Shown here one piece after another: positions 1-32,225 of a DNA stretch of 64,000 nt. The first letter of the stretch is position 1, and each line of letters opens with the position of its first letter. The notes beneath the pieces were generated by a model, which ran no database searches, had not been told where the DNA came from, and saw only the letters and a program-made list of their open reading frames with translations. The position numbers and the translations under genes are program-made. This DNA is from Tricharina praecox (Eukaryota), in assembly GCF_024521635.1 (NCBI RefSeq), contig NW_026250403.1:248001-312000 (forward strand), in the 5' to 3' direction.

Positions 1-562
1 CAATTAAGTACTTGGTAGTAACTGGTAGGTAGGGAGTAGGATAGTCGTCAGGAAACAGGTAGGTAGGGACCACTCTGCAGGAACGTTGTTCGGGCCCAGG
101 TTCGCCTACGACGGCGGCGGCACTGGAGCGGTGCGGACCGAGTGGAGATGAGTGGCAGTCGGTCACTCATTCGCTTATTCGCTCGCTCACTCACCCGTTC
201 AGTCACACACACATCCATTCACTCACTCAATCACCACTCACTCGCTCATTCAATCATCCATTCACTCGCTCACTCGCTCAATCACACATCCAATCACCCA
301 ATCACCCATTCAATCACCCATTCAATCACTCCCATCTGCTTGGACATCTGCTTGGACATCTGCTTACATATCTGCTAGGACACGGTCTGGACACAACCTG
401 GACATCTCCTCCTCCTGCTCATCCCGCATTTTCGATCCTCCTCTCAGTAACCCTTCCTCGACACCGCACGCCGCCCGCCCCTCCTCCCTACGGTCGAAAG
501 AGCACATGGAGAAGAAGTAGAAGAAGCGCTTCGGCAGAGCCTACCTACCTGCCTACATATGA

Positions 563-633
563 CCTGCCCGCCTGCCCGCCTGCCCGCCTGCCCGCCTGCC
601 CGCCTGCCCGCCTACCCGCCTGCCCGCCTGCCT
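563..633. repeat. (CCTGCCCG)n minisatellite
   Basis: About 8 near-perfect 8-bp units read directly. Confidence 0.9.
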
Positions 634-2068
634 CCGAATACAGGATCCCCACACATCCGTCATAGTATCTACCGCCTTGTCGGACTGTCGGACATGCCAT
701 ACCAGGACCAGGACCAGGGCCAGACAGGACATGCCACCCCAAGTACTCTCTACCTAGAGTACTCTACTTACCACCCCAAGTACCCAACCTAGGTAAGTAG
801 TACCTGTCGAGTACCTGGAGTACCTGGAGTACCTACCGTATGTACGGCTTCGCATCCAGCAGGTCCAACGCGGCCATGTACCTAAGTACTTTGTACATGT
901 ATGTACAAGTATACACAAGCTGTTGTCCTGCGCGAGCCAACTAAGTACCAGTCAAGTACATATGTAGTACTAAGCCAGCAAGTACTTACTGTGTACTTGT
1001 ACTTGTACACCGGCTGCCCAAGTTGACGACATGCAACACTTGCTCTTGCGGATGAGGAGTGAGGAGTGAGTGACGAGATGGGGGATGGGGGCCCTGACCT
1101 GCTCTGCTCTGCTGCCCTTGCCCTTCTTGCCCACGCCCTGCATGTACCTGGTACATACATGCCATAGTATGTGTAGTCTACACACCGTAGTATACATGTA
1201 GTCTACATGTAGTATGTACATGTACATGTACATGTATGTACCTGTCTGTTGTCATTGCTTGCCTTCAGGCTTCTATGTACAGCCAGCCAGCCTTGCTAGA
1301 GCAGGTATGCCATGCTATGCTATGTGCGTAATGTCCCAGCCGAACAAATGGGCCATGAGACCAGCCCAGGAGACCAGCCCCATGAGACCAGCCATGAGAC
1401 CCGCGCCGATTACCGCCAGGACTTTTTTCTTTCTTTCGTTCTTTTCTGCTTCGCTTTCTCTGCGGGCCTAACTAGAGTACCACAACCGTAACCCTCCCCT
1501 CCCCCTCCCTTCCCCCCCGCGCCCTCCATCAACCCCATCCACCGCGACCCCGACCCTGAATTCTTGCGCCATCCGGAGGATGAGCCACCGAACTACCCAG
1601 GAGTCCACTAGTAGGACCCCCGCCGCCGCCCGACGAAGAAAAAAATAAAAGTGTGACTATGCTAGAGTAGAGTATGATGATGCTTGAGTCTTGAGTCTTG
1701 AGTCTTGACCTGACCCACAGTCCGGTCCGGTCCACTACTTGGAAGCTGGTGGCTACCTACATAAGCGAATGGGCGGGTTGGGCTGGCTGGCTGGGCTGGC
1801 GGTGTATGAGGCAGCAAAGGCCACAGCTTACAGCCCACACGACGCAAGGGCAAGGGCAACCGAGCAACTAGAGTAGCTGGATAACTGGGTAGCTAATCGG
1901 TTGCGACTATGGAACTGCTAGTTAGCTGTTAGCAGCGTCTATGACGATGAGGAGGAAGAGGAGCCGGAGCAAGAGGAGCAAGACGAGGAAAACGAGGAAG
2001 AGGAAGACGGGGAAGACGAGGAAGATGAGGAAGAGGAAGAGGAAGAGCGAGGTGGAGGAGAAGGAGGA

Positions 2069-2459
2069 GAAACAGAAACAGAAACAGAAACAGAAACAGA
2101 AACAGAAACAGAAACAGAACGACAACGACAACGACTCGAAGAAGCCGAAGAAAATGAAGATGAAGAAGAACCCCAAGAAAAAAGAACAAGAAAAAGAAGC
2201 ACAAGAAGCGTGTCCGGGGGCGATCGTGATCGGCTGCAGTGATAGAGTATCCTCCACTCCATGCGGGGCCTGCATCGACGTTGTCCGTGTCCGCTTGAAA
2301 ATTGAAACGAACGGATGCTGTAAGTATGCACATCCATACTCTATCCATACATACACAGGAGTGGCAGCCCGAAAAACCTCGTAGTCATGTAGAGTACGTA
2401 CGTGTGTGCGTGTGTGTGTGTGTGCGTGTGTGTGTGTGTGTGCGTGTGTGTGTGTGTGT
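2069..2459. repeat. (GAAACA)n at 2069-2119 and imperfect (GT)n at 2402-2459
   Basis: Tandem units visible in sequence. Confidence 0.9.
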
Positions 2460-3188
2460 CCCGCGATTCCCAGACCCGTGCGAAGAAACTCCGCAAGCAA
2501 CGGGCAAGAAAGAAAGCAAGCAAGACGGAGGGCCATGGGGAGGGGGAGGGGTGGTGGTGGTTCTGACATTATCTACTAACGAACTACCTAGTAGAGTACC
2601 TATGATGTGAAGCGAGAGTGTGGTAGGTAGGACTACTCTACTCTACCTACTCTATGTACATACTCGCTCGTGCAGGCATCCCCCTCCCGCTATCCCGGTG
2701 ACCGATGGCGGACCAACTCCACAAACGTGCGCGATACACCGCGGCGGTAGGTGACCGGTAGATTTGTACTTGGTTTGGGACATCCGCGGTGGTGGTGGAG
2801 GTGGGTGGGGGGAAGGGGGGAAGGAGAGAATTGGTTTCACTGGCCACGATGATGGAAGGGTTGGACGGTGGTGGAGGTGGTGGTGGAGGTGGTGGTGGTG
2901 TGTAGTGGTGATATGTAGTGGTGGTGCGAGTTCCACCGGAATGCTGTGGCTTGCACTTTCGTCGCTCCCAACTCCCAGAGCTTTGGCGTTGGAAGGGAAA
3001 GCGAGCCCAGGACTGAGGACCAACTCTGCGCACACCCGGTCCCGAGGAAACCCTGCGCAGTAACCACTACCTGGTCAGTTTAGTAGAGTAGGTAGAGCAT
3101 GTAGAGTATCAATGTAGAGTGGTTACTCTACTTGCTCCACCCAGAGCATGACGCCAACAGAATTGCTGGTTTGTGTTTCTGTTTGTTT

Positions 3189-3244
3189 GTTTTTGTTTTT
3201 GTTTTTGTTTTTGTTTTTGTTTTTGTTTTTGTTTTTGTTTTTTT
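3189..3244. repeat. (GTTTTT)n microsatellite
   Basis: Tandem hexamers visible in sequence. Confidence 0.9.
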
Positions 3245-5499
3245 CCCTTCTTCCGCCTTGGGTCGCCCGCCCAAATCTTATTTTATTTTTTTGTTTTGTT
3301 CCGGTTGGCCGTGTTTGTTTTGCGCCGTGTCGCCATGCTGAGCGAGTGCGGTCGATGCGGAGGAGATGGAGGAGGAGGAGGTGCAGCGATGGAGGTGGTG
3401 GTGGAGGTGGAGGCGGTAGCAATGGAAGCAGGTGGAGGCGGCGGTAGTGGTGGTGGAGGCGGTGGTGGTGATCTGATAGGAGGTGGTGATCCGATGGTCG
3501 GTGGTGATCCGACGTGATGTTGCTGCGGCAGCGGCATGTAGTCTCTAGAGTCTCGTACCCCCATTCGCTGACGGGAAATGCACATGTGCGTCGGTCTGCC
3601 GGTCTGCCTGTCGGTCAGAAGAAGGTCTTCCAACCAGAGTCTCGCGCCGCGACACATCCGACATCGCACATGCACATGCGTCTGCTCTAGATGCTATGCC
3701 GGTCTGTTTTGCATGGAGGGCGCATGGACGCTCGCTCATGTGACGGCAGCAGCCCCCCCAAAGGGCTGCTAACTACTATAACCGACCAACTACTGCATCA
3801 TCACTTGCTTGCTTGCTTACTTGCGGAGCGGGGGGATGGGTGCGAGGGGAGGGAGAGAAATCATTCCTACGCACACTTCCATGTAGTCAACTTATTCCTA
3901 GACTCACAGCGGAGTCGCTTCATAGGCCGGCGTCGAATGATTCCCCGCCCCGGCTCCGCAGCTGCACACGCAAGCAATCAGGGTGTCGGAGCATCGACAG
4001 AATAATGCGACTGTGTCGACGACTTCTGGACGCGGGGGATCCGTACCGAGACATCATGCGTGCAACCAGGACGGGAGGGGAGGGGAGAGGAAGGGAGCGA
4101 GGGGAGGGAGGGGAGCGAATGATGAATCCTCCCGCCGTCAGTTGGCGTCGAGCGGAGTGTGGTATGATACCTTCCGTACTGTGATGTACCGTCCTGTGCC
4201 GTACTGCACCGTACTTTGTGGCCAGTGCATCTCCGACCGGCGAGTCGACATCCATCACAGCTGTCCAAGACCGTACCGCACCGCACCGTACCGTCGAGGG
4301 GAGGAGGATGTGCGGCACCTTTCGATCCATGCCCAGCCAGTGAGCCGGCTGCATCCTCAGCCGCCAGCAGGGAATCGATATCTACCGTTATCTTTGTAGC
4401 GAAAGGTCGAGGTCGAGGTCGAGGCAGGGCAAAGGGTCTCGCCCGCCCGTCCGCTTAAACGACCCGCCCGCTGGCTGGATGGCTGGCTGGCGTCCGTTGC
4501 TGAGCTGTGACCACTGGGAACAGGCAGATAGTTAACCGCGTGCGTGCGTTGACCCGGAGATACGGGTCGGGTCGGGCCTGGAGCACGGATGACGATGGAG
4601 TGCCTATGGTGCCTGCTAGATATACCTGCTATATAGTAGAGTACAGTAGAGTACCTACCTCATACATGCATACACACTCACACACGCGATGTGGTGGACG
4701 GCAAGATGCCCGGTCACATCGGCACTCTTCTCCGTCGTGAGTGAGCGGTGGGGCGGCGGGTGGTGAGTAAACAACCGTCTTCGTCCTCGTCTTTGCGCGG
4801 GCGGGGGGCGGGGGCGGAGTCGGTTCCTCACGCTTTCGTTGGTTCGTTGGTTCCGTTGGTTTCGTAACTTTCGTTGGTTCATCGTCGTCGCTGTCGTAGT
4901 CCGCCCGCACCTGCAACCACACCGGCAGAATAGTGGGCTTATCGTAGGTACATTCCTGCTCTACCTATATCTACCATAGGTAGTAACCACACGGAGTGCC
5001 GAAGGAATACGCAAAACACAAAACAACATCTATTAGCTTCCCTGTCCGTCGCGATGAGCCAACATCGTCCGCATCCGCATCCACATCCACATCCGCAAAA
5101 CAACTAGCCTCAGCTTCGTCACGGGTTCTTCCGACTTCGGGATTACATAAAAAAAAACCATCGTCGCTTCTGGCGCTGCTATGTGCTGCTGCTACTGCTG
5201 AACTATTCTACCTACTCTACTCTACCATACCCTACTCCATGTATCATACTCTACACAACCTGTTGCCGAACCGCTCCCACCTCCTCCCACGTTGTTGCTG
5301 CATCCATGAATCCATGAATCCATGATCCCGCACGGAATTTCCAGGGATCCGGTCTGGTCTTGGTCTGGTCTGGTCCGGTCTGGTTTCGGTCTGGTCTGGT
5401 CTACACACATACGGTCCCACACGGGTAATGCTTCGAGCGGCGAGAGGGAACCGAAGCGTGAAGACGTGTACGGTTAGAACTTGGAGGAGGAAGAGGGGG

Positions 5500-6901
5500 G
5501 GGTTCAAGGTGTGCGGAATATCTGGAGTATGTATGTTACGTAGAGTACCTGGTACTCTACCTACCCTGTGCTACCTATATAGTACACACTCTATATGGCA
5601 CGCCGTCCGCACTGTCCATCACTCGACAACGGCTCTCCCCCAGGCTCCACCTCTCCCCCGGCGGCCCCGGCGGCCCCCCACTTTCGAGCCCCGGAGCAGC
5701 CGTCCATCACATGGACGACCGGCACTGCACTCGAGAGCATAACGGGGGGAACACTACTATCGTGCCTACGTACCTCGGGATCATACCTAGCTGCACTCAC
5801 TCGCGGTGTGGCCGAGCGAGATGAGGACCTCCTGCCGGCGGGAGGAAACGGATGTGGTTAGTGCTATAGTGGGCATCAACGTTGGCGGGCATGGCGGGGT
5901 CGACCACGTGGGGCTTCTTCGTCTTCTTCTTTTCTTCTTCTTTCTCCATCATCCTCTACAGAATACGGTAGGTAGACGATCAACTGATACCTCTACCTTT
6001 CTTCTCTCTCTCTGTGTGTGTGTGCTCTCAATTCCGTCTCCGGCTTGGACTCTGAAGGGGTGTTGGCAAAAGCGCCGTCTGGTCTGCAAAACAGCCAGAG
6101 GACTAGAACTGTGGGGAAGAGCTAGGTTACGCAGCACTGCCCTGCCCCACCCTCCAAGGTTGAAGGACAAAACCCCCAGCCCTTTGTGAACAGCAGACTC
6201 TGCTCTCGAGCCCGTGGAGTAGGAAGCTGGAAGCTACGGATGAAAACTTATCCACTGCGGAGCGGAGCGGTTGGAATCCTTCCCGCCAGGCCTAGACTTC
6301 CCTGCCATTCCTGTCCTTCCTTCCTTCCTTCGACGGAGTGACAGAAACGGTGTCACCGCAGGCCCAGAGCTCGCCTGTCCTTGATGCTCTGGCTCGCTTT
6401 CTCCACAATCCGCCGGGATGTGTGTGTGATCCACGGCGATTTCGTCTTTGAACCTGCCTTCTCGAAAGAAAGAAAAGGGATTCGCTAACCTCCATCGGGG
6501 GGAGAGGGGATACTCTACTGGGGGACATGAGAGGAAGGGGAGGCCGGTGTTGCACGGGTGGTATCTAGTGGCGGCGTGGCAACGAAAGAGCGGGCCGGGA
6601 CGCAATGTCGACCACCACCGCCGCTTCGCCCTGCCCATGCCCACGCCCATGTCCATGCCCATGTTCCTCCTTCCCTTTGGCCCAGAGTTTTCCTCCGCTT
6701 CGAACGAGCGCTACCATACTAGCAGGTACTCTAGATGTGGGACGGGGTGAAGAACAGCCCCAAGCAGAGCTTCCTCACTAGTTAGCCAGCCAGCCAGCCA
6801 GCTAGCGGAACAAACCCACCACCGGTGGACGGCCTCCAGACTCGCCCAAAGCTTGTTCTCACGATAAGCAACTCTTCGCACCGTCAACCTTCCTCGACGG
6901 C

Positions 6902-6945
<44 letters not shown>

Positions 6946-7260
6946 GCGATGACAGCAGCGGCGGCGATGCAAGTGATCAAGAGGGGGCGGGTATGCGGCA
7001 CGTAAGCGGCTTCGCAGCGACGGCAACGGTTCGGGGCGGCGGCCGCCGCGTATCCGCCTGCCTGCCTGCCTTCGCTATGCTATGCTACCTATGCTACTAC
7101 CATATACTATACACGGACAACACATCTCAGGCCGCAGGCGCAGGCAGCCAGCTCTCCTCTACTTTCTACAACGATACTAGACCGTACATACTGCACAGGG
7201 CGACGTGGTGGTAACTGGTTCCTTTCCCGCCAAGTCGCTGGAACGGCGGGGGGGGCGGGG
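5500..7260 (+). repeat. Copy 1 of a diverged non-coding inverted duplication (partner about 19660-21320)
   Basis: Core 5836-5902 matches the reverse complement of 20956-21017 with about 4 mismatches and one 5-nt indel. Colinear patches of similarity continue on both sides. Outer limits are uncertain. Confidence 0.75.
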
Positions 7261-7400
7261 ATCTGCACGTACTATGTCTATAGTTATGTGCGTGGGTGCG
7301 TTCCTTTGGTTTGGCACCTTCTCCAATGAAGGCATCGTTCATGGCCACGGCCACGGCCACGGCCACGGCCACGGCCATGGACATGGACATGGACACGGAC
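6902..7400. repeat. (GACCAC)n at about 6902-6945 and (GGCCAC)n/(CATGGA)n at about 7343-7400
   Basis: Tandem hexamers visible in sequence. Confidence 0.85.
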
Positions 7401-7965
7401 AGCCCAAGTCGGACTGTAGGTGTGTATCCAGTAGGGAGCGAGCGTGCGAGCGAGGAAGGAAGTGGCCTAGCCGACTTCTTGAATGGCCTCTTTGGGAGGG
7501 AGTGGAGGGAGGGGAGGGAGGGGAGGGAGGGGAAGGGGGAGGAGGGGAGACGACGAGAGAGAGAGAGAAAGAGAGGCGTCCCCAGGCTTTGCCCTTGCTC
7601 TGACGATTCGCAGAATGATGGTTTTGGGGCTAGGTTCCAGACACTATACGGAGGGGACGGAGGGGGCAGGCACTTGTTTGGAGTTTCGTGCCCTATCACT
7701 CTCACTCTCGCTCTCACTCTTGCTCTCTCGGGACGAGAGATGAGAGATGAGCACTCCAACTTGCACCCCGCCAGATGGCCGGCCTCGCATTCCAGAAAGA
7801 GAGAGAGAGAGAGAGTCAAGATTACCACTCAGGCCTGACTCGAGCTTCGGGGAGAATCAAGCCGGAGTACCATATGTACCCTACCCTACCATCTGGGGAA
7901 GGGAGGGAGGGAGGGAGGGGGGGGGGGGGGTCAACGGGTATGTCGCGGCCATCCACCTACCAAGA

Positions 7966-8157
7966 GCGCACGGTTTCATCTCGTATCGTTGCGGGTACAT
8001 AGTCGACCATACCGGGCGGTGAAAGAAGCTTTCCATGACCGTATGTAAGTATGTACCGAGGGCGCACGGTTTCATCTCATATCGTTGCGGGTACCTATAC
8101 CCAGTGGGTAAGTAAGTGGATGGCTATACATACCAGGCGGCGAAAGAAGAAGCTTCC
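7966..8157 (+). repeat. Imperfect tandem duplication of about 70 bp
   Basis: GCGCACGGTTTCATCTCRTATCGTTGCGGGTAC at 7966 and 8062, each followed by CATACCRGGCGGYGAAAGAAG. The second copy has about 30 extra nt in the middle. Confidence 0.85.
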
Positions 8158-9172
8158 TACTCGGGACCTTCGGGACCGCAGAGTCATCAGGCAGGCAGGC
8201 AGGACCTGGCGGGTGGTGGTGGCCCAAACCATTGCTCGATTCCGGCGCTCGCGAGGGCCTCCACGATACGATACGATACGGCACTCGAGCCGGGACCGTA
8301 GTGTGGATATCTACGTGTGTTGGAGTTTACCGTCGGGTAAAAGACACTCGCTCCTTCCGCCTTCCCCTTCATACCTCCATACGGGGGGAGTCCATATACC
8401 GGAGGTACCTGCTAAGCACATATATCCATCACCCTTCTCTGGCCGGATCTAGAGTAACTAGTTGGGAAGCCGCGCCCGACGACTGGCCCCCCATATATGT
8501 CATGCCGTTCCATCGGCATGCGGGTAGGGTAGAGTACATGCACTCTACATACTCTATCTGTCATCGTCATCATCATCGGCCAGCCAGGGAGTGTGGCAGA
8601 GTAGGTGCTCTATGTATTGTACATACATACATACACGCCATTCTGCTGGAGTATAGCATAGATGCCTCGATGCATTCCCCATCACCATCACCTCGCACCC
8701 CTCCCCTCCCATTCCATCCCGGTCGACATCACGCAGCAGCAGCACCAAGCACAGCCAGCAATATACTATAGTGCCCCACCCTCCCTCCCCCCCGCCAGGT
8801 CCATGGCCGCGCAAATTGAGCTGTTGGATTTTCCTCCCTTCTCACTTCCTCACTTCCGCCTCCTCCTCCCCAGTCCTCTAACTCTCTTGTTCTTTCTCGC
8901 GTTTACTCTACTATACACTCACTCACTCTCCGAGAGAGAGAGAGAGAGAGCATCGTTTCCCGACCATCCACCGACGGAATCCCAGGCTCCAGCGGGCAAG
9001 CAAGGAACGATGGCATGGGATCCCCCCACCGCTCGGCCAGTCTGTGGTCTCGGGACTGGGGGCACTGGGGGAGGGGGATGGGGAGCTAGGAAAGAAGCGA
9101 CTGAATGGAGAATGGGTACTCTAGATACACTGTAGAGTACGACTTACGTCGGTAATTGTTCCTTTTTCTTTC

Positions 9173-9211
<39 letters not shown>

Positions 9212-9438
9212 AGGCATTTGCTTGTTTGGGAAGGAGAGGTGAAGGAAGTGGAAGTGGAAGCGGCAGCGCGCTCTCGCCTGCCCGCTCGCGGCCATGAGTG
9301 CCATAACTATGAGGTCGGTACCGTGGCTAAGAAAGTAGAGCAAGTAAGTACTCTGCCTGTGTAGATACTTCATCACCATCACCATCGCAAGACCCCTGCA
9401 CTCCCACTTCGACACGAGGTTGTCAGTGTGTCTCTGTG

Positions 9439-9439
<1 letters not shown>

Positions 9440-9480
<41 letters not shown>

Positions 9481-10378
9481 ACACACAGAAACACGCCAGC
9501 AACCCGCAGCACTGGGTGGGATTTGGGTGGGAACAGTGGGAACATCGCCAGCGCCGGGGCCGGCGCCGGCATTCGTCGGCGTTGGGAAGGGAAGAGAAGG
9601 AGGGTGTGCAGTGAGCGCAGCCTCTCCCCAGGTCCCCACAGCGCCCCTGCAACTTGCAAGGCGCGTGCGGTCTGTACATAAATATGTGCGTAGGTAGGTT
9701 GTGGAGGTTGTGTAGCTGGCTGGCTGGCTATCGGTCCAGTCAGTCTGATCCGGGTCGCCTGCGGTCTGCGGCATGCGGACTCTTTCTTTGCCCTTCATCC
9801 CTCCCTCGCGAAAGAGCGAGTCGCTACATCACTGCACCATCACTGCACTTGAGTTTGCCGACGCGGAGTGCATTCTTCAGCTACGGCTGGAAGCTGGAGG
9901 CTGCAGTGTAGTGCAGTGCTGTGCAGTTCAAGTGTTTTTTCCCTCTCTTTTTCTTTTTTGGGGTTTACTTTTCTTTCACTTTTCTTTTCTTTTTACTTTT
10001 TTTTTTGGACTTCCTTCAGGCTTCATCCGATACGATGGGTTCTGTACTCTAGATACTCTACTCTACTCTATGTAGAGTAACAGTTCTTCCCGCAGCTGGA
10101 TTGAGGGGAAGGAGGGACGGAGGAGTTCGGGATGGAAGGAATACTTTTTTACTCTATGTAGATGGGTGTATGTGTGAACAGAACCAGAACGGAAAGATAT
10201 GAAAAACGTGTGAGGGGTGGATGGATGGATGATGCAGATTGGATCCAGATACAGGTCCTCGGGACGGTGGGCGGGGACGAGGGACCGGGAAGGTGAGGGA
10301 GGGGTGTGGCTCAGCTCAGTCGCACCGTCGTCGTCGCCAAGGAGAGAGAGAGAGAGAGAGAGGGATGGACGTCCTCTT

Positions 10379-10439
<61 letters not shown>
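9440..10439. repeat. (CA)n at 9440-9477 and (GA)n at 10380-10439
   Basis: Long dinucleotide runs visible in sequence. Confidence 0.95.
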
Positions 10440-10443
<4 letters not shown>

Positions 10444-11614
10444 AAGCAGCTGCCTCACCCCACGCCGAGTCGACTCGTTTCGTAACCGGGTCCTAGGTAT
10501 TTACATGGACGAGCCGTCTCCTTCTCCTCCTCCACTCCTCATCACCCTTCTTGGCAAGCCAGCCAGCAGGCAAACAAGTCGGTAAACAGATGCTCATTTC
10601 GTGCCCACCATCCGTTCCGTCACCGGCCTCCCACCTACCGTCCATACCACCTACCGTCGCGACTATTTCCGTACTCTACATCCTCTCCTCTACAGTGGAG
10701 CGGAAATTAAGCGCGCATGCGGTAGGTGTCGTCGCCAATCCAACCAAAACAAAAATAACAGCAAGTAAAAGTGGAAAAAAAACGTGTGTTCTTCTCGAAG
10801 AAGAAGAAGAAGAAGAAGAAGACGGCTGCGGCAGGGCAGAGCTTCGTTTGACCTGGAACTTGGAACCTAGAGCTTGGAACCCCCCACTCCCAACCAAAAG
10901 TCCAAAAGAAGAAACGAATTCCGGGCGGCTTCTCTCCGCGCTCCCATTGGGATCCAGACCGAGCTCCAGGATCCAGACCACAGACGCCAGACCGACTGAC
11001 CGACTGGCTGACTGGCCCTAAATCCGAACCGAGACGTCACGCACCTACAGTTCTGGCTCTGGCTTCCCCTCTTTTCGCGAACCTTCACCGCTACATATGT
11101 AAGGTGGCTAGCTGTTGTAAAAGTTCTGGAGACTCGAGACTCGAGAGGCTCGGGGGTTAAGCGGCCTGCGTATGCATCTATGACTTGCGTACTCTATGTT
11201 TGACGCCTGCCCCACCAGTGACCAGCACCACCACTTCTCTATACGGGTACTTGGGTACGGTATGTGTGTATAAGTCTAAAAGCCATCCCAGCAACCAGCA
11301 ATCAAGCAGACCATACCATAGCCCAAAGTTGAATGTTGGGCCCGGAAATACTTGCCCAACCCCCGTGCGCGAAATAATAAACATCTCCACCCCCACCCTC
11401 GTGTGTAAACATCTGACCAGTCCAACAAACAAACAAACAATAAACATCCCCACCCCTCCAAATCTCGCTAGAAACTACCATCCGTCAACATCCGTGGTCT
11501 GCTTGATGACCTCTAATATCGCGTGCTTCCCATCCGCACCGCTCCCCTCCTCGTTCTCCCCCTTCTCCTCATCCTCCTCATCCTCCTCATCCTCCTCCTC
11601 TTCCTCTTCCTCCT

Positions 11615-13250
11615 TTAGAACGCACCAAACTTGTTCGACCTTGCACCCTTAGCCCCCGCCTTGATTTGAAAGACGGCACCGTGATGTCCCGATCCCTCTG
11701 GCGTCTCCTCACCGTCGTCCACGCCCGCAGTGGTAACAAAGATTATATCCAAGTCCCTACCGCCGAAGGCAGGACAGGTGATCTTCCAAGCGGGCATAGT
11801 GACGTGCGCCAGCACCTCACCCTGCGGCGAGAGTTTCAGGATCCTGCTACCCTCGTGGACAGCAGTCCACAGGTTCCCGTCGGTGTCGATGGTGCAGCCG
11901 TCGAGAACACCGGGCTCGTCCGCGGCGAGCTGGAAGAATACCCGCCGGTTGCTGAGCGCCCCCGTGGGCGAGTCGTAGTCGTACGCGTAGATCCCCCGCG
12001 ACGGAGAGTCCGTGAAGTACATCGTCTTGTCGTCCGGACTCCCTACGGTGGCCGTGATGGGAATGTCAGCCATCTTTTCACCCTGCTACGCTCTCTCCCA
12101 TCTCCCCACCACCCCCTCCCCCCTCCCTCTAGGGGCTGGGCTATTCAGAGTGAGAGTGCGTGCACGAGTAGAGTAAGGAAAGCTGGGCTGGGGGTGTGTG
12201 TGATCAATCATTCGGGGGGTGGCTCATTTCTTACATCCCATTCCGTTCGGAATCGATACGTCCTCGATCATCCTGTGCAGCGTCATATCGGGGTCCAAGC
12301 GGAAGACACAACCTTTTTGTTTTTTTTGCATGCGCATCAGCCCAATTCTCCTCTCTCCTCTCCCCACTCCCCACCCCCCGTCCTCTCACCATCCGCCATT
12401 CTTCGTCCTTCGCCATCCTTAGTCCTCGTAGAGGGTCGGCACAAAGTTTCGGTTCGAAGCTAGCCGGACGGACCCGCGCTGGTTTTTTTTTGGTTTCTTT
12501 TACTGACCTTCTGCTTGTAGGTTCTTGACATGGAAGCTGGAGAGATGGAGAAAAAGCAAAAAAGAGCGTAGGCATATAGATTAGCTCGAGTCCGTCAATC
12601 GTAGGGGGTGGGCGGGGGGGTGGGGATCGGGGGAGGGGGGTGTGAGGAATAGCGACGGTCGCTTCCTTCCCGCCATCCCGCCCGCATCAGGCATACTCAC
12701 TCGTTCATAGATCCGGCCCAGAAGCGGCCGCGGGAGTCGACGGCGCCATCATTGAACCTTAATCCCCAACATCAGCCTTTGATGTCTCACATGAAGGGAC
12801 AACAACAATGGCAACGACAACGCACCTCATCCGCTCCGCCATCTCAGGCTCATCCTCGTACACCTTCTTGACATACGTCAACTCGCCGGTGTCCCTGCGC
12901 AGCGTGGCAAAGCCATACTTCGCGGCAACGATGTACTCGTCAGTGCGGCCATCGATGTCGGCCGTGATCCTACCACAACAATCCCAATATCAGTTCCCCA
13001 TACTCAAGCGAGCGAGTGATCCCGCATGGACGCCGATCCCGAGAGTGACGACTGACCCAACACTATCCTCGAGCACAACGACCTTGTGCGAGGCCGGCCC
13101 CGCGGCGAGCGACACGCTGTGCACCTCCTTCCGGATGATGTCGACGAAGCGCAAAACGTCCGTGTCTTCCTCGTAGAAGGGACCTTCGCCGAGCGCGCAG
13201 GCGACCGGCAGGTACGGCGCCGTGATCGTGAGGGTTTCGATTTCCGGCAT
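11615..13250 (-). CDS. SMP-30/gluconolactonase/regucalcin family protein (6 exons)
   Basis: Spliced translation gives the family motifs LGEGP, RFNDGAVDSRGRFWAGSM, IPNGMGWSPDDKTMYFTDS, DGCTIDTDGNLW and ITCPAFGG. Five GT-AG introns keep the frame. Confidence 0.93.
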
Positions 13251-14263
13251 TGCGATGGACAGGGAGGGCGGGGGCGGGGTCAGTGTGAGGTGTCAGGTGA
13301 TATGCTTGCTTGATTGCTTGCTGCTGGTCGGGATGGAGGGGATGAAGTCGTTGATGTCGTTGATGAATGTCCCGAGACCCGTGCAGTGTCCGTGGCCGTG
13401 TGCTGGTGATGGAGCTGTACCTATGCAAGCAGGTAAGTAGCCTGTAGCCTGTAGATAGTGACGCAAAGTACGGTCTGTATGCACCTATGTGTATGTGACT
13501 GTCCTAGTTAGACTAGTTAGGTAGATCAGATCAAAAACGCAAACACAACCGGACGATCGCTAACGTAGTTACGCAGTTGAAAAAAAACACCAACGCAGGT
13601 ACCATGGCAGACCTTAAGTATCGACCGTAAGTACTATAATGAATGTGACGAACGAAAAAAAAAACCCTATCTATTACAATTCCCTCCCTTTCTCGACAGA
13701 ATTCTATATTTTGCACTCTAAAATCATCTTCCGTCGTCGTGTACACACTGTATGTGCTCTATGTACGTGGTGGTGGCCGTGGTGGTGCTGAGGTAGTGCT
13801 GCTGCTGCTGCTATGGTGGGGCTTCCCTGTACGTACATACGTGCGGCGTGGCGGCGGGCGCGGAAGAACTTTAGCCCCCACTACTCCCCAGCGGGAATGT
13901 CATCCGTGAAGTGAAGCCAGACTTTTGTTCCGATAATGATAGGCGGCCCGCATTGCCGGGGGGATTAGCCTGCTTCATGGATGGAGGCATGAGCACGGGT
14001 GAAGCATAGTGGTGGAACATGGGTTTCTCTGTTGCATGGTCTATCACTCTCCGGCAAGGTTGGGGATATCATCATGGTATCTTTACAGCTAAAAGTCGCT
14101 CAGGCAATCAGGTTCAATGTCCTTGTTTTCTCTCATGGTACAATCCTGCTTTGTCGACAAGGCTGGACAAGACCCACCAACTACCGATCAACCAATGTCG
14201 TGGCGAGAGCCCATGATCCAGCAAACCCACCCCCACTCTCGCCTCGACGAAACCTCTTACCGT

Positions 14264-16557: not shown

Positions 16558-19500
16558 CTTGTTCTGCGAGCTGTACGTTGGAGTAGTAGTCGCGAGTTTC
16601 CGTACACGGGGGTAAAGAGCAAGGGAAAGGGAAATGCGGGGCAGAATCGAGCGAGGTGAAGATGATGTGAATGGTTTGCCAGCAACGCGGGAAGCGGAGC
16701 AAAGGGATGATGATGATGCTTGGCCGTGACGACGGAGCAACCGGCTTATCAACCTCATGGTGCTGCAAGTGCCCGTTTCCGGAGTAACACCAAATGCGAA
16801 TCGGTTACCTAGCTACGTCAAGGACTGGGCAAAAGCTGTTTCCCTCTGGCTACCTGCTTGTTTTGCTCTTCTTGGGGGGTGCTGATCAGCCGGAGTATGT
16901 AACTACACTAAACTGGCTGTCAGACAAATTGCCGTCGCGTCGGGTACGCGCGGGATCTGTTCACGAATCACGAGGATAGGTAAGTAGGACCGTAGGTACC
17001 TGTTCACGTAGAGGTGGATTCTGCACTGGAAGAAGCCGCAGGTACCCGGGGCAGAAGGTCGGTATCCAGAGGTTCTTGGCACGGTATGTACTTGACTAAG
17101 AACTTATGTTTACAAGGTGCTGCGATGGACGGGGTGCGGATATCTAAGCGTCAAATGGAAGCGCAGCGGTTGGCTGCGGGGGATTTTCCGCGGGGCCGGA
17201 GCGAGGGCGGGGAGGGGCGGTGGGGGACGGTGGGGGGCGCGGCATGTGATGTCGGCGGCGGCGAGCGATAAGTCGCTTATCTCCACATGATTTTTCCGAT
17301 GGATGGATCCTTGCAAGCCCCCGCATGCACAATTCCGCCATCGGATCAACAAGTCGGGATATCGAACTCCAAAGTCCAGACACTTGGGATCTTGACGCTG
17401 TCCTCTGGTGTGGATTAACCATGTATTCTATGTACTCTATGTGCCTACGTGACTACCGTATGTCGTACCTCGAGCGAGGAGATGGTTGGCTGTATTGTTC
17501 TTCGGCAAGACTATTTTTACATATATGATACGGCGGCTGAAACTGCCACCAACCACGACCAGGCGAACCACGTCCAGTAGAGTACTCTTCATACTAGTAG
17601 CAGGGACAGTGTTCGTTCGCAATGGCCTGTTTCCTGAGACGAATGGTCAAAGTCCTTCAGTTTCCGGCAGGTATGTAGCTGAACACTCAGGTAGGTCGAG
17701 TACATACTCTGTGCAGCGCATCGCATCGAGTGGCCCAGCCCTCATTGCGAAGGGTGGTGATGGTGCTCGACCGACCCACAGTTTTTGCGCCGTCCACGCG
17801 GAGTATGGTCCGCATTCTCGAGGTCAATCCGAAATGGACCTTTTTCCCGCTCCGGGAAGCGGGCGGTTTCTTATCTGTGGGAGGTTGGTTGGTGACTCCC
17901 ACTGACTGCATCCGATCGAAGTTCAACATGACCAGACCGGTCTCACCGAGGACACGATTGGAGAGTCGGGAAGAAGTCTGAAGGGGACAGCGGATCGACT
18001 GGCCCGTTCAAGTAACTATTCTACGGTAGGTACTACACTCAACGGGTTCACTTCAGATGTCATCCGTAGTGTGGCCGGAAGGCCCAATGTTGACTGGCGT
18101 ATGTAGGTACATAGACCACATACCAACAACTGCTGATGGAACGCCTGATGGATCTCACGATCCTCACCCGGTTGCTGGTCTCAGGGAGGGATTAACTAAC
18201 TAACTCTGAGAGAGGCTCGATCTAACTACCGTATCGTGATGAGAAACATCCGATTGGTGATCTCTCTCCGTTAGTTTTTTTTCCTTTCGTGTTGGGTCCG
18301 CAGCCCAAAGGGATTGAATAATGGTGGCACCAAAACCACATCATCGACCACAAGTCAAGTCCCGAAAGTCAGTCCTACCTCTCATCTGCCGCTTGGGCAT
18401 CAAACTCACCTTTTTTCTTCTTTTCAGTAGGTCGGTCATTAATTCCGGGTGCTGCTTCAGCCGGTGACCCTCGCGGCGAGAGTCGAGACCACAGCCTCTT
18501 CCACGAGTTAACCAAGTCATGCCCCAAGTCCAAGTTCCAACAGTCACAGCTCACTACAGCAGACTCCAGAGACATCAGTGACAAACAGACAGTTAGCTTC
18601 CTATCGCGACCAACATCCACAGTCGGTTGTGGCCGTGGTCAACCGACATTTCAGAAACTCGAGCCGGCGATCGATAACATCGCATTCGGGGTTTTGGACG
18701 TCTATAGGGCATTAGTCAACTATGAGCTCGGAAGGATCGCTACCTACTATTAGTAGGTACATACCTATCTACCATGTAGGTATGTACATCATTGGGTGAG
18801 GGGGTCGGTGAGGGGGCGTCGTCGATTGTGGCGAGTCCGCAGCCCGCTCATGCCCGCCCGGAAACACTCGAGCTCACTCGCCGCCACTCGCCGCCACCAC
18901 CGCGGCACCGCCTCGCGACTCGTGACCACACACAAACTGAATGGTAACTATGGTACAGCACGGAGGACAGAGGATAGTTACTGGACACTGGATAGCACTG
19001 TTGTAGGTACCAGAGGGAGCGATACCTACCCAGGCCCCCCATCGGGCTACGGTATTAACTATCATTTCGAATTCACGGACCAAAGGACTCCCGGTGCCTA
19101 AGAGGTAGGACACTATAACTGGTACTAGTTATGAGCAAACTCCACCGAGAACACCCCAGTTCTGGACCGTAAAAGGCAGGCGGGCGGTCACAGGCGGTCA
19201 CAGGCGGGCACCTGGCGCCTCCGAACACAGCAAGCCAGCAGATTCCATCGTCACCTTTTAATTCATCATTCCCTTCTCGATCTTGCTAATAAAACCACTA
19301 GGTATTTGACTACCCAGGTAGGTGGCATCCAGCACTGTCCTTCAAACCTATCCCCATCCCCCTTCTACCTTCACAATGCGCACCAAAATGCACGGCAACG
19401 TACAGGATCCTCTGCAGTAACTAGGTGGTTAGTTAGCGACGCTCTCCCCTGCAGGAACTCCCACGGGTTGCGTGAGGGATCAACAACAGGTCAGTTAGTT

Positions 19501-19659
19501 ATTACTAGTAGCATGTAGCTTATCTGACCATATGTGCATAGAACTATGCATGCATACTGACACTCTGCTTACCCAACAGCCCGGATTCCGTGAGCCACAG
19601 CGGATATGCTACCCAGATGAAAGCAAGCGGGATCGTTCGGTGTTCTCTCCCCCTCCTCC

Positions 19660-21320
19660 TTTCCCCGCCCCCGGGATCGGAAACTGCCCTGATCTGTTTG
19701 ATTTCGCTGTAGATATTAGTTAGAGCTGAACGAGCAATGCTGGACCTTCTCCATCTCGTCTAGACGCGGGTGGAGGGTCGTGACGGCAACTTCATGGTGG
19801 AGCCTGTCGTGGGGTAGTTGGATGAGGGCCGAGCGTCGAGAAGAGTGTGCACGGGGCGAAGGGTCACGATGGGTGGTGATTAGGGCCTGGAGTTGAGGAG
19901 CGGCTGGTCTTGAAGAGCTGAACGGATGCGTTGAGTGGGAGATGCAGTTGGGTCGTGGCGGTGAGAGGTGGTTAGGAGATGAAGCCATGAGGGGGCCTGT
20001 GCTGGATTCCTCTACGAGCTTGGGAGAGTCTCCTAGTAGGTATGTAGATACCTAGTAGATATTGTGACAGCGGTGAGCGACTCCACTACGAAAAGAGATG
20101 CAGATTTTAGTCGATACCTAGTACACCGACCATCTTCAGAGAAGTCCTCTTTCCATATCATGGTAGATAGAGTACCCGGTGTCTTCCGGCTTCGGGAGGC
20201 AAAGCTCATCCATGGTCTCGGAAAAGTCAGCTCGGAACAATATCATCAGAGCAGGGCGGCCAACCATCGGTTCGGCACCTCGTCCTTGATACAAAACGGG
20301 AATACATGATCGTTCTAACTAGTTAGCTCACACAGGGCCCCCGGGATACACCCTATTGTAGGGCACCGCAGTCTCCATTCAGTCCCCGGACGGGACCACG
20401 TCGTTGGTGACCCCCAAAAGACCGTAATCCGGATGAACTAGAGGGGTATCGACCCACCTCCGCCTGCTTTGGGGACGGGACTCCCGATAGCATGGTAGAG
20501 TCACCTCACGATGCCGCACGCTGAGAGGGTGGATCGATGCCGTTTCTTCTGTTCTGTTCGGCGGGGTGGGTGGGGGTCGGAGTCGGCCACGCGGCGGACT
20601 GTCGGGGCTCGCAATAATTCCCCCCCTCCACACACACACACACTTCCGTCCATAGCGCGCCGGTACGTTTTAGTGACAGCACCGCGAAGCCACAGTATCG
20701 GTGCATGGTACATAGCGAGACTGCGGCTCGGCGTCCCCGATTCGGATTGCCTACCCACCGTCGGTGCATGGTCCCGAGGTTGAGGCTGGCTAGTCAGTGG
20801 TGTCCGGTGGTTCTGCGAGGGCTCTTTACCAATGCCTCTCCAGGCCTGACGAGAAAGGAAGCGCACACAGATGAGAGAGAGGAAATGGGGGGTTGGCCGT
20901 CTATTCGATAGATGATCGAACAAGAAGAAGAAAAAGAAGAAGAGGAAGAAGAAGACGACCCCGCTATGCCCGCCAACGTTGATGGCCACTATTAACCACA
21001 TTCGTTTTCTCCCGCCGATAGCTCCTCTATCGCTACGTCACAGTTGTGTCCGGCGGATTCGACGGTGCAGGTAGTTGACTGGAGTTGGCGGCTAGTTAGC
21101 AGGCTCGCACAAGGCAATCAATGCTCGAGTGATGGCGTGTGGTTGTGCTATGTACAATACGCCCCGTCAACTCCGCGGGAATCTTTTTGAAGACTGGTAA
21201 TTTGCGCTGGCCGGTGGCCACCTTGGTAGTATGTACCAGGAACAGCCAATAAGCCGTACCTCACAAATATTACGAATTATAAGCGCAAGGTGAGGCCCCA
21301 CTTACCCTTAAACCCAGTAC
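19660..21320 (-). repeat. Copy 2 of the diverged non-coding inverted duplication (partner about 5500-7260)
   Basis: See copy 1. Matching patches keep a coordinate sum near 26.9 kb. Confidence 0.75.
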
Positions 21321-21815
21321 GGTCATGAACCTAGAGGAGAATACCTGGCAGAGTCTATTGAATCGCGTGCTGCCGGCTGGTTAATGCCAGATGACAAGAT
21401 GAGTGTGGTGAGGATTCTGGGCGGGCGGTTGGCGCTGACTCGGTCCTACTTGCAGTTGCATAAAAATTGATCACGGCTACTATTGTATTTCCAACCAGGT
21501 CCCGTAATGCCAATTTATTCCAGGTTTGAATTAGTACCTATACCTATCCCGATTCAAGCTTACGGGTTGACATTGTTCTTCATCCGATCGGTCATCATGA
21601 CTACATACCATGAAGTCTTCCTGGCCTCTGAAGCAAATCCAGCAGGCTTCAATCATCCCCCACCACCGCCTTGATACTTTCCCCGATCACCATAGCTATC
21701 GAACCAGTTGCGCAGGTTGGAGCTTGTTGGAAGGACTCGTGGTTGTTATCACTAGAACGATCGAGATGGAGCAATGATATATTATGATATGGTCTAGGAG
21801 CTACAGCTACAAGAA

Positions 21816-21880
21816 AGAGAGAGAGAGAGAGAGTGTGTGTGTGTGTGTGTGTGTGTGAGTGTGTGAGAGTGAGTGAGAGA
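21816..21880. repeat. Compound (GA)n(GT)n microsatellite
   Basis: Visible in sequence. Confidence 0.9.
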
Positions 21881-22137
21881 AAGAAAACCGAACTTCGACC
21901 CGCTACCGCCACCGGTCCTCTAAACGGCTAGTGGATTACTCACTCACAGGAACACACTCGTTCCCCCAGAGCTGATCGAGGAGAGCTGGGCGAAGAGCAA
22001 TATATAGGGAACCGGTATCGAGCTCGCGGCCAGCGGTCGGTGATAGCCGGGTGGAAAAGGATATGTAATTCGCCATGAGCTACTTGAAGAAAAGTGCGTC
22101 GCCACAGCCTGGCAAACCCAAAAGCCAGGACGCGTAA

Positions 22138-22410
22138 TGTGGGAGAAGATATGACACGCAATGGCCATTCGCAATGGGCATACGCAATGTGGGAAGAGGA
22201 GGCTCGAGGATTGGAAGACAGGTGTCGTTCTGTATAGCACTGTATCTCTTGTTTTTGTTGTATATAAACTACCCATGTTGTCCGCTCTTTTCATATCTCT
22301 ACCAAGCAGACAGTCAATTCAATCACTTGTTCTCCGCTTCTCTCTCTCTACCAAACCTTCCGTCCGTACGATCGAACTTCCGCATAGCCCAAACTACAGG
22401 TTATGAGCCC
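22138..22410 (+). mobile_element. Putative 5' LTR (TG...CA, about 22138 or 22188 to 22398) plus primer-binding site GGTTATGAGCCC (22399-22410) of a Ty1/copia element
   Basis: ...AACTACA is followed immediately by GGTTATGAGCCC, the copia/Ty5-type PBS. TATATAAA lies at 22261 and the gag ATG is 60 nt downstream. The LTR left end is ambiguous and no 3' LTR was seen. Confidence 0.7.
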
Positions 22411-22469
22411 GGGCCTGCAATAAGACAACAAAAGTCCGCCGAATCGATTCACCCCACCAATCCGCAACC

Positions 22470-23190
22470 ATGCCAAACACCGACAAGACCTCTGCCCACA
22501 GCTCGCTACAGATTAAAAACCCATCGAAACTCCTTGGACAGTATAACTATCTCATCTGGGCCAGAACTTGGAAAGTTGCGTTTAGGGCCTGTCAATGGTG
22601 GGATATCTTCAACGGCAATATCGTACGACCGACGAATATCAAGGCTGGTAAAACACTCGCGCCCACCGAGCCCGCCGAGGCAACCTCCGGTACCGACACC
22701 CACGCAGTCGAAGTTTCAGCTAAGGAATGGGACTTGATAAACGACCAAGCGCTCCACTTGCTTCATACAGCAGTCGATAGCACCATCCTGCACAACATCT
22801 CGATAGCTGAAACTGCCGCGGAAGCATGGCCAGCGCTTAAGAACCTCTACGACCACGAAACAGCTACCTCGATAACCCTCCTCAAGGCAGTGCTTGACAA
22901 CAAGCTCAAAGAAGGCGGCTTTATACAAAACCATCTTGAAAACTTCAGTAGCAACTGGAACCGACTCCTAAACCGCTGCCTCTCAGCCACCGACGAACTC
23001 CCTAGCCCAATGCCTCCAGACTTTGACGTCATCAGACCACACAAAGACCGCATTCTTGCTCACATCGCTACTGGCTTCGATGGAGAACATCGTCGATAAC
23101 CTCCACACCAAGACGGAGCTCACATACGATGACGTCCATGCCAAACTACTGGACCTGCACGCAAACCACTTGTCCGGGAGACCAGCTAAG
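22470..23190 (+). pseudogene. Ty1/copia gag (UBN2-type), frameshifted
   Basis: KLLGQYNYLIWARTWKVAFRACQWWDIFNG...W...DQALHLL...AAEAWPALKNLY is a typical copia gag pattern. After a frameshift near 23000-23050 it continues FLLTSLLASMENIVDNLHTKTELTYDDVHAKLL. Confidence 0.88.
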
Positions 23191-23276
23191 TAAAAGGCGA
23201 CAACAACGCACAATTTCGTGGTTGTGAGTTGCAACGCTTGCTTTCGATGGTTGTTGGAGTTCGCTGACGGCTCGCT

Positions 23277-23665
23277 GTAGCTACCTATACGAGGTGGCGG
23301 CTGCTGAGTGACATTGCCATGTACCTACTCCGCTTCGGTTGTAGAGACAGCGACTGACTTCTGCTTTTGGGAACCCCAACTGATGCTGGCTTTCCCTAGC
23401 TGAGTGACATATCCGGAGAATGGCCTTCGGTCGTCAAGGTTGCTACCGCAGGAGGAATTGGAGTAGCAAATCAGTCTCGATGGCTCGGTCTTTCCGGTTC
23501 GGCGAGGGTAATGCAATTCCCAGTCGGAGGTGCCGCGTAAATAGCGAAGTAGGTACTCTCTTTTCTGCTTTCCCAAAAGCAGAAGTTAGTCGCTGTCTCT
23601 ACAACCGAAGCGGAGTAGGTACATGGCAATGTCACTCAGCAGCCGCCACCTCGTATGGCTACCAA
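23277..23665. mobile_element. Copia RT C-terminus/RNase H fragment, inverted and partly duplicated as a fold-back
   Basis: Minus strand reads KAEKRV/LRYLRGT...YSNSS...DDRRPFSGY...ISWGSQKQKSVAVSTTEAE/YMAMS. 23288-23373 is the reverse complement of 23570-23656 with one mismatch. Confidence 0.9.
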
Positions 23666-31520: not shown

Positions 31521-31614
31521 CGGAATACCCATATCGGCGTTATTGGAGTACCATCATATGATGGTTTTTTTGTGTAGATGTCTACTGACGGGCTAGATAT
31601 CTTCTCTTTTTGTG

Positions 31615-31801
31615 TTTTTTTTTACATTTTTATAATTTTATAATTTTACATTTTTACATTTTTACATTTTTACATTTTTACATTTTTACATTTTTACATT
31701 TTTACATTTTTACATTTACATTTTTACATTTTTACATTTTTACATTTTTACATTTTTACATTTTTACATTTTTACATTTTTACATTTTTACATTTGCATT
31801 T
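31615..31801. repeat. (TTTTTACA)n minisatellite, about 20 units
   Basis: Visible in sequence, about 100 bp after the USP stop. Confidence 0.95.
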
Positions 31802-31929
31802 GGATGAGCTGGGCTGGGCTGGGCTGGGCTGAATTAGTGGCGGGGTTTCCTTGGATTTCTTTGGATTTCTTTATAACTACCTCGCACCGTATAAGGCGCT
31901 TAGCATAGGCTCCTATTGCATCAAGGGAT

Positions 31930-32225
31930 TTTGTTTTTAGGATTTCTTTTTGGGCTTCTTTTTAGGCGGCTTTCTTGGGCTTCTTTTTGGGCTTCTTTTT
32001 TGAGCGGCTTTCTTGGGGTTTCTTTCTTGGGCGGCTTACTTTGGCTTCTTCTTGGGCTTCTTTTTGTGCTTCTTGGGCTGGGCGAAGGGTGAGGATTCGA
32101 TACACAATAGACGGGGTTTCTTTGTCACTATCAACATAACTAGGTGTGCTGTCTTTGCTGTCTTTGCTGTCTTTGCTGTCTTTGCTGTCTTTGCTGTCTT
32201 TGCTGTCTTTGCTGTCTTTGCTGTC
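31930..32225. repeat. Degenerate GGGCTTCTT(T) repeats (31930-32085) and (TGCTGTCTT)n (32147-32225)
   Basis: Visible in sequence. Confidence 0.85.

Follow-up and report, generated by a model that had tools for sequence, protein, structure and literature searches.

Short TA-framed words in the non-coding DNA of a Tricharina praecox contig as probable micro-insertions and possible footprints of transposon excision

This study concerns a stretch of 64,000 nucleotides of contig NW_026250403.1 from Tricharina praecox (the window; positions are counted from its first letter), whose non-coding DNA abounds in short words made of two TA dinucleotides that enclose two or three other letters, among them TACTCTA, TACATA, TACCTA, and TAACTA. 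These words are probably the products of a recurrent and recent process of insertion at TA. Of the explanations considered, the likeliest is that this process is the excision of Tc1/mariner-type transposons, a point on which our judgement is evenly balanced; transposons as the agent, the number of their families, and their termini are all things that we infer. That the words act like small insertions made at TA is supported by a number of observations. First, the spacing of TA dinucleotides follows a rule. Second, units of both orientations are joined in mixed chains. Third, some of the inserts can be polarised. Fourth, the words are linked to gaps in an alignment with a relative. Fifth, their positions are not conserved.

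A spacing rule for TA in non-coding DNA

An earlier interpretation made from the letters alone (hereafter the sequence-only reading) had estimated by eye 35-40 copies of TACTCTA or its reverse complement TAGAGTA in positions 1-11,200. We counted 39 there (22 + 17), 43 in 1-23,665, and 53 in the whole window (29 TACTCTA and 24 TAGAGTA), where 3.8 are expected under a Markov model of order 1 and 5.2 under one of order 3; ranked by z-score, the pair is the most over-represented of the window's 7-mers. The companion words described as abundant are so as well. In 1-11.5 kb, observed and expected counts are 39 and 1.9 for TACTCTA, 33 and 6.4 for TACATA, 26 and 4.9 for TACCTA, and 8 and 1.1 for TAACTA, the last of which reaches 16 copies against 1.5 expected in 16.5-22.4 kb. 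The exact copies of TACTCTA in 1-11.5 kb far outnumber its 21 one-mismatch variants, each of which occurs 0-6 times, and this is consistent with the words being young.

The excess lies in the distance from one TA to the next. In 1-11.5 kb, the next TA stands at 4 nt in 93 cases (19.7 +/- 4.7 in simulated sequences) and at 5 nt in 72 (20.9 +/- 4.7), and the ratios for spacings of 2, 3, and 6-10 nt are close to chance (0.63-1.46). A footprint is expected to be a duplicated TA enclosing 2-4 nt, and the excess is confined to spacings of 4 and 5 nt. Expressed by spacer, the TA frame is enriched 4.1x for 2 nt and 3.7x for 3 nt, against 1.28x for 1 nt and 1.24x for 4 nt; none of the other 15 dinucleotide frames shows this pattern of enrichment at spacers 2 and 3 with values near chance at 1 and 4. 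Over the whole window, spacing 4 occurs 276 times (90.5 expected) and spacing 5 occurs 146 times (86.8 expected). The comparison of coding and non-coding DNA that the sequence-only reading had proposed was run within the window and placed the excess in non-coding DNA only. In the 17.9 kb of open reading frames (ORFs) supported by Pfam, the counts are 11 against 10.8 expected for spacing 4 and 7 against 11.1 for spacing 5, whereas 24-64 kb outside such ORFs still has 88 against 38.9 for spacing 4. TA-N2-TA thus characterises the non-coding DNA of the whole window. Words of the TA-N3-TA type, TACTCTA for the most part, are concentrated in 1-11.5 kb.

The words form 308 chains with 422 units in the window, and the two chains singled out by the sequence-only reading, at 2634 and at 10046-10078, were both recovered (Table 1). 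Among the 114 pairs of adjacent units, 95 differ, 12 are identical (5.9 expected), and 7 are reverse complements of each other (5.5 expected). A footprint should be about as frequent as its reverse complement, and the unit counts are 40 CC and 35 GG, 38 CA and 33 TG, 29 CTC and 24 GAG, and 18 AC and 22 GT. The words are not a dispersed repeat and their flanks are unrelated: around 53 TACTCTA and 52 TACCTA sites, we found only a bias towards G at -1 and towards C at +1. Outer flanks of the form G...C surround 23.2% of 181 chains, compared with 9.3% of 601 isolated TAs.

Polarised insertions in a dead copia-type element

A direction of change could be read from the relic of a copia-type retroelement, for which the sequence-only reading had claimed 4-bp frameshifts at TA. 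These proved to be real 4-nt inserts (Table 1). On the minus strand, the pol fragment reads AEKRV, four bases, LRYLRGT...STTEAE, four bases, and YMAMSLSSRHLV. Five related proteins were found, and the breaks were polarised against the four that were aligned, all of which contain intact AAKRVLRYLRGT and STTEAEYMAMS with no gap. Because these four homologues read through uninterrupted, both breaks are 4-nt insertions in this copy, each at a formerly single TA, as a footprint would be. The two insertions are reverse complements of each other and neither duplicates adjacent bases. The fragment now has 15 TAs, from which 13 ancestral ones are obtained by subtracting the two inserted TAs, and the insertions fell on the only 2 GTAC sites among these 13. 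As the second insertion is present in both arms of an inverted duplicate, it predates the duplication or was copied with it.

The gag part of the same relic has a frame break of its own. One and the same leucine of P0004 is reached by the alignments of both frames, and the break may most simply be another gain of 4 nt, its sequence being one substitution short of C-TA-CC-TA-G; the case is ambiguous, as a +1 insertion with one extra residue is also conceivable.

Separately, the pol remnant ends in a hairpin-like inverted duplication whose 92-nt arms are 97% complementary and lie 196 nt apart. This arrangement suggests that the dead element may have undergone a fold-back rearrangement.

Copies within the window were less informative on direction. 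There are only four non-self matches. The inverted duplicate that pairs 5807-6029 with 21042-20853 (70.7% identity over 225 columns, E value 2e-22) does carry, as the sequence-only reading had said, extra bases in one copy that the other lacks; the implied direction of change did not stand, as the difference in CGGTAGGTA is unpolarised and MAFFT placed the gap differently (16 nt). A second pair, read as different inserts at CCTGG-TA near 5548 and 21230, found no support: it lies ~260 bp beyond the sole significant self-match, where the alignment is poor. The copies of a 96-bp tandem pair (7958 and 8054) differ by a 25-nt block with no simple TA unit.

Turnover of the words between related genomes

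One metagenome scan, with the last exon of a neighbouring gene as query, returned 57 loci. One of them, L001 (12 kb of sequence), has 80% amino acid identity in the neighbouring gene and about 70% nucleotide identity, and is syntenic with the window: its positions 3,777-8,200 correspond to 18,683-14,077 of the window and its positions 1-1,512 to 26,799-25,241. Another, L026 (15 kb), is more distant (58% amino acid identity). L001 has the same leading words as the window, with observed and expected counts of 24 and 4.3 for TACATA, 11 and 3.1 for TACCTA, 6 and 1.2 for TAACTA, and 4 and 0.9 for TACTCTA. TA spacing 4 occurs 62 times in L001 (19.3 expected), and its excess in L026 is weak (55 against 37 +/- 7.0). 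Five bacterial-looking loci served as negative controls, and their TA-N2-TA ratios are 0.31-0.98 in four cases and 1.30 in one. Downstream of the orthologous gene, 1.4 kb of L001 is of low complexity and rich in TA words.

In the non-coding DNA of 16,567-18,683, which can be aligned with L001, conserved blocks alternate with unalignable DNA, and the TA words stand in gaps or in unalignable columns. Word bases face gaps more often than other bases, both in the window (31% vs 10%) and in L001 (15% vs 4%), and the identity between the two sequences is 28% at word bases compared with 55-56% elsewhere. None of the 17 window clusters and none of the 11 L001 clusters is conserved identically at the aligned place. 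The sequence-only reading had held that conservation of position across species would point to protein-binding sites instead; such conservation, as expected of a cis-regulatory motif, was not found against the syntenic L001. At one site (window 17090, L001 about 5212), TA-CA-TA faces TA-AC-TA between shared flanks G ... CC. By these alignments, the turnover of the words outpaces the divergence of the species.

Two further features of this comparison concern the aligned DNA itself. A block of ~90 nt (17255-17347 in the window, 4950-5040 in L001) is nearly identical in surroundings that are about 60-70% identical; its place upstream of the aldehyde dehydrogenase gene makes it a candidate regulatory element, and no Rfam family matches it. 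The same conserved anchors are 6.5 kb apart in the window (18683-25241) and 2.2 kb apart in L001 (1512-3777), and the copia relic is part of the extra window DNA between them, as is the inverted paralogue of 5807-6029.

Excision footprints as a candidate origin

If the words are excision footprints, each would be a scar in which two or three specific bases and a second TA were added at an existing TA, preferentially in the context G-TA-C. The agent would be cut-and-paste transposition by TA-targeting elements of the Tc1/mariner/pogo type or by their MITEs (miniature transposable elements with inverted repeats). Insertion of the element would duplicate the TA, the cut made at excision would fall, on the non-transferred strand, 2 or 3 nt within the element, and end-joining would leave these terminal bases between two TAs. 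The unconstrained DNA would have been crossed repeatedly by several families, whose ends would begin CA, CC, AC, and CTC, and the mixed chains would be explained by every scar supplying a new TA target. The inner lengths of 2-3 nt, the TA on each side, the symmetry of orientation, the polarity of insertion, and the stacking are all predicted by the footprint mechanism.

The published record, as far as excerpts of the sources go, describes scars of this shape. Tc1/mariner transposases cleave the non-transferred strand at a point a few nucleotides into the element, end-joined footprints consist of the element's first or last 2-4 nt, and the canonical footprints of Sleeping Beauty are TACAGTA and TACTGTA (excerpts of PMC6943129); the TA duplication flanks the footprint (excerpt of PMC2874221). 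The words of the window share with these scars the TA...TA frame, the inner 2-3 nt, the equality of orientations, and the insertion relative to a single ancestral TA. They differ from them in their inner letters, which are CTC/GAG, CC/GG, CA/TG, and AC/GT and not CAG/CTG, in having no identified donor, in their density of ~1 per 90 bp in 11.5 kb, and in being stacked in mixed chains. Closer in their letters are Stowaway MITEs and plant mariner-like elements, with the terminal consensus CTCCCTCCRT, a TA target, and putative footprints such as TACTC...AGTA, among which a new element may adjoin an older footprint at one TA, so that the same site is reused (excerpts of PMC1925063; see also PMC4561436). 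Ends in CTC would give the 3-nt footprints TA-CTC-TA or TA-GAG-TA, and reuse of one TA is a further likeness; these are plant elements, however, and the window has no Stowaway-like terminus. The scars of hAT elements such as Ac/Ds are likewise small and arise from cut-and-paste excision and end-joining, but they are palindromic copies of flanking host bases in an 8-bp duplication (excerpt of PMC4561436), whereas the frame in the window is a duplicated TA with few and fixed inner letters.

The amount of sequence involved can be put in figures. Arithmetic from the spacing counts gives an excess of about 124 words in 1-11.5 kb. The expansion of intergenic DNA by such scars, as claimed by the sequence-only reading, is modest, ~550 bp or roughly 5% of the 11.5 kb. 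The excision frequency of impala in Aspergillus nidulans is reported to be on the order of 1e-5 (excerpt of PMC4832277). By rough reasoning, ~124 excess scars would ask much of active families, yet nothing absurd, given evolutionary spans of time.

A number of results weigh against this interpretation. First, no donor came to light. None of the 185 window ORFs of at least 110 amino acids matches a transposase family, which bears out the earlier statement that the window has no intact transposase, and a scan for TA-flanked inverted repeats returned 29 candidates, none convincing except the relic's own palindrome. A Stowaway-like end at up to 3 mismatches was found 73 times (55.4 +/- 8.8 by chance), never with fewer than 2, and no terminus matching CTC, CC, CA, or AC turned up in the 64-kb window, L001, or L026. 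Second, nothing longer of an end seems to be retained: the two bases after TACTC are TA in 43 of 81 cases, and a second consensus was not seen. Third, footprints that retain both ends in full do not occur for the CTC and AC types and hardly occur for the CC type (TACTCGAGTA 0, TAACGTTA 0, TACCGGTA 1); TACATGTA occurs at 6 sites, some of them within a tandem run. Fourth, the implied traffic is high, given about 1 scar per 90 bp, and the density of TACTCTA in 1-11.5 kb is 7x that of the remaining DNA, so that either hopping over short distances or some property of the region has to be assumed. Fifth, a word spectrum shared by two diverged species would be expected as well from a selected motif or from a process intrinsic to the host. 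Sixth, the indels that separate the window from L001 are seldom bounded by TA. Among the 49 gaps in the BLAST alignment that measure 4-15 nt, 1 is so bounded (1-2 under other scoring), as is 1 of the 25 well-flanked gaps among 228, a tally that is weak at ~70% identity and yet is not support; because the aligner scatters gaps at this identity, it neither confirms nor strongly contradicts the excision of transposons. The interpretation offered by the sequence-only reading is thus sustained where it holds that the words act as TA insertions and that their shape fits published footprints; no element, MITE, or matching terminus was found in the window, L001, or L026 to bear out the rest.

An inverted-repeat candidate in L026 was set aside, as it overlaps ORFs that, judged by eye, look like an ordinary housekeeping gene.

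Alternative origins of the words

The evidence for insertion at TA says nothing on the agent, and the alternative that survives best, unlikely as we hold it to be, is a host-intrinsic process independent of transposons, in which breaks at TA, favouring GTAC, would be repaired with a short stereotyped insertion and the words would be repair scars. Such a process would account for a spectrum (CA, CC, AC, CTC) that the window and L001 have in common at unshared positions, for the lack of a donor element in the scans of the window, L001, and L026, and for the same insert at both GTAC sites of the pol fragment. To our knowledge, no TA-specific break-and-repair process of this sort has been described. 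The 2- and 3-nt inner lengths and the symmetry of orientation match instead the staggered cuts of Tc1-/mariner-type transposases (excerpt of PMC6943129). The shared spectrum is not decisive, because terminal nucleotides are conserved within transposon clades, and the weakness of the spacing-4 excess in L026, at 58% amino acid identity, speaks against a process intrinsic to the host.

Selection offers a different account, which we consider improbable: the words would be short cis-acting protein-binding sites with rapid turnover, and TACTCTA would form a homotypic cluster in a long regulatory region. The exactness of TACTCTA (39 copies against 0-6 of each variant), its concentration in one 11-kb region, the occurrence of the words in either orientation, and the presence of the same words in L001, also downstream of the same gene, agree with this. 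It is harder to see why several unrelated inner sequences should obey one rule of the TA frame, or why TA-N2-TA should be enriched in non-coding DNA across the whole window. No cluster is kept identically on either side of the comparison with L001, though neighbouring blocks are conserved, and identical inserts break the frame of a dead retroelement, in which no selection for binding is expected.

Slippage or tandem duplication of units of 4-5 nt (TACC, TACA, TACTC), followed by point mutation, would make the words proto-microsatellites. The window words do share with tetra- and pentanucleotide microsatellites a period of 4-5 nt and some short homogeneous runs, the region is full of microsatellites, L001 has runs of TAC-N units, and identical units stand side by side about twice as often as expected (12 vs 5.9). 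In 1-24 kb, 41 of 186 TA-N2-TA words (22%; 17% by chance) and 23 of 107 TA-N3-TA words (21%; 6% by chance) belong to a perfect two-unit tandem. Some units, the 5-nt unit especially, have therefore been amplified by slippage, yet slippage is not the source of most words. About 78% of them are outside any perfect two-unit tandem duplication and, unlike the tandem copies of one unit that make a microsatellite, most are single occurrences of 1.5 units or members of mixed chains, in which 95 of 114 neighbours differ and orientations are mixed. In addition, the two polarised copia inserts do not duplicate neighbouring bases, and the spacing pattern differs in other dinucleotide frames. As the main source of the words, proto-microsatellites are largely refuted and have little probability left, as the sequence-only reading had argued in rejecting slippage on the evidence of the copia inserts; its suggestion that the scars seed repeats is weakly supported by the 21% of TA-N3-TA words in tandem.

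Repeat-induced point mutation (RIP) is common in ascomycetes, and a substitutional origin of TA from CA or TG, through RIP-like C-to-T transitions in repeated DNA, would agree with a TpA/ApT ratio that is higher in 1-11.5 kb (1.01) than in 24-64 kb (0.70), but it is refuted for the polarised cases, where the copia changes are insertions and not substitutions, and has hardly any probability for the rest, given a G+C content of 54-59% across 1-12 kb in place of the AT-rich, CpA/TpG-depleted DNA with transitions only that RIP would leave, a (CpA+TpG)/(ApC+GpT) ratio only slightly lower there (1.03 in 1-11.5 kb vs 1.13 in 24-64 kb), and CA-N3-CA words that are not enriched (1.08x), so that there is no precursor pool.

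Broader implications

One may ask how far insertion at TA extends beyond the dense field. We regard it as conceivable, though not likely, that in the unconstrained DNA of this lineage micro-insertion targeted to TA predominates among small-indel mutations and is ongoing, through either very active MITE/transposase families ended by CTC, CC, CA, and AC or TA/GTAC-specific repair. The dead copia element fits this idea, since two of its frame breaks, and perhaps the third as well, are of this type. If it is true, the process keeps writing new short words and proto-microsatellites into intergenic DNA. If the words are footprints, they are a readable record of past transposon traffic without the elements themselves, a record from which one could learn how many families there were, which letters stood at their ends, which target they preferred (G-TA-C), and how regions and lineages differ. 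Excision would then, beside insertion, contribute greatly to the new non-coding sequence of a fungus, to mutations that break reading frames, and to the seeding of microsatellites. If the agent is not a transposon, the words would be the work of an undescribed sequence-specific mutational process. Judged by titles and the openings of abstracts, none of the papers listed by our literature searches describes footprints so densely packed in the genome of a fungus; looking up the heptamers gave unrelated matches only, and footprints are not treated in the text of PMC10512250.

Setting of the window and further observations

The G+C content of the window is ~55%. The nearest named clusters of a MAT1-like protein in the window are mostly from Ascomycota, which we take as a lead only. 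Words sampled from 1-10,000 were present in three runs of one soil-metagenome study at fractions of 0.78, 0.47, and 0.12. The gene-free stretch, in which the TA words are densest, is also crowded with microsatellites and purine/pyrimidine runs. It has no recognisable gene: no ORF of at least 110 amino acids there attains the Pfam gathering score, the sole Pfam match listed being Atrophin-1 with 24 bits against a cut-off of 29.9, and scans for Rfam families and tRNAs gave none. The genes and other features to its right are given in Table 1, and to the right of the dead copia-type element follow ordinary genes.

Table 1. Coordinates of the TA words, the copia relic, and their surroundings in the window
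Feature	Position	Strand	Remarks
Gene-free stretch	1..11500		55% G+C; densest field of TA-N2-TA and TA-N3-TA words
Chain TA-CTC-TA-CTC-TA-CC-TA-CTC-TA-TG-TA-CA-TA	2634..2664	+	Mixed units
Nine extra bases CGG-TA-GG-TA (CGGTAGGTA)	5966..5974	+	Directly 3' of GAATA; absent near 20902 in the inverted copy
Chain TA-CTC-TA-GA-TA-CTC-TA-CTC-TA-CTC-TA-TG-TA-GAG-TA	10045..10079	+	Both orientations together
SMP-30/gluconolactonase-like gene	11,618-13,250	-	Right of the gene-free stretch
Aldehyde dehydrogenase gene	about 14.3-16.56 kb	-	Followed by non-coding DNA, then by the dead copia-type element
Non-coding DNA upstream of the aldehyde dehydrogenase gene	16567..18683	-	Alignable with L001 3777-5738
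Chain TA-TG-TA-GG-TA-CA-TA	18100..18113	+	Adjoins conserved block CTGGCG-TA; single TA in L001; one-sided anchor
gag part of the dead copia-type retroelement	22470..23190	+	Pfam Retrotran_gag_2, E value 1.5e-12
gag frame break	within 22998-23004	+	Now reads CTCCCTAG
pol fragment of the copia relic	23282..23568	-	AEKRV / LRYLRGT...STTEAE / YMAMS...
4-nt insertion, GTAC to G-TA-GG-TA-C	23324..23327	-	Between the EAE and YMA codons; polarised
4-nt insertion, GTAC to G-TA-CC-TA-C	23550..23553	-	Between the KRV and LRYL codons; polarised
Inverted duplicate of 23282-23373	23570..23661	+	92 nt, 97% complementary; second insertion copied at 23617-23620

In the gluconolactonase-like gene, a long intron-like gap of low complexity (12100-12700) separates exons; one TAGAGTA (12169) lies within it, as does a 27-nt block that has no counterpart in L001. 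Two arrays come after an ORF with a ubiquitin-hydrolase (UCH) match (30,702-31,292): an 8-bp minisatellite with a TTTTTACA-like unit, for which about 21 registers are listed, at 31581-31827, and a perfect 9-bp array of TGCTGTCTT at 32147-32227.

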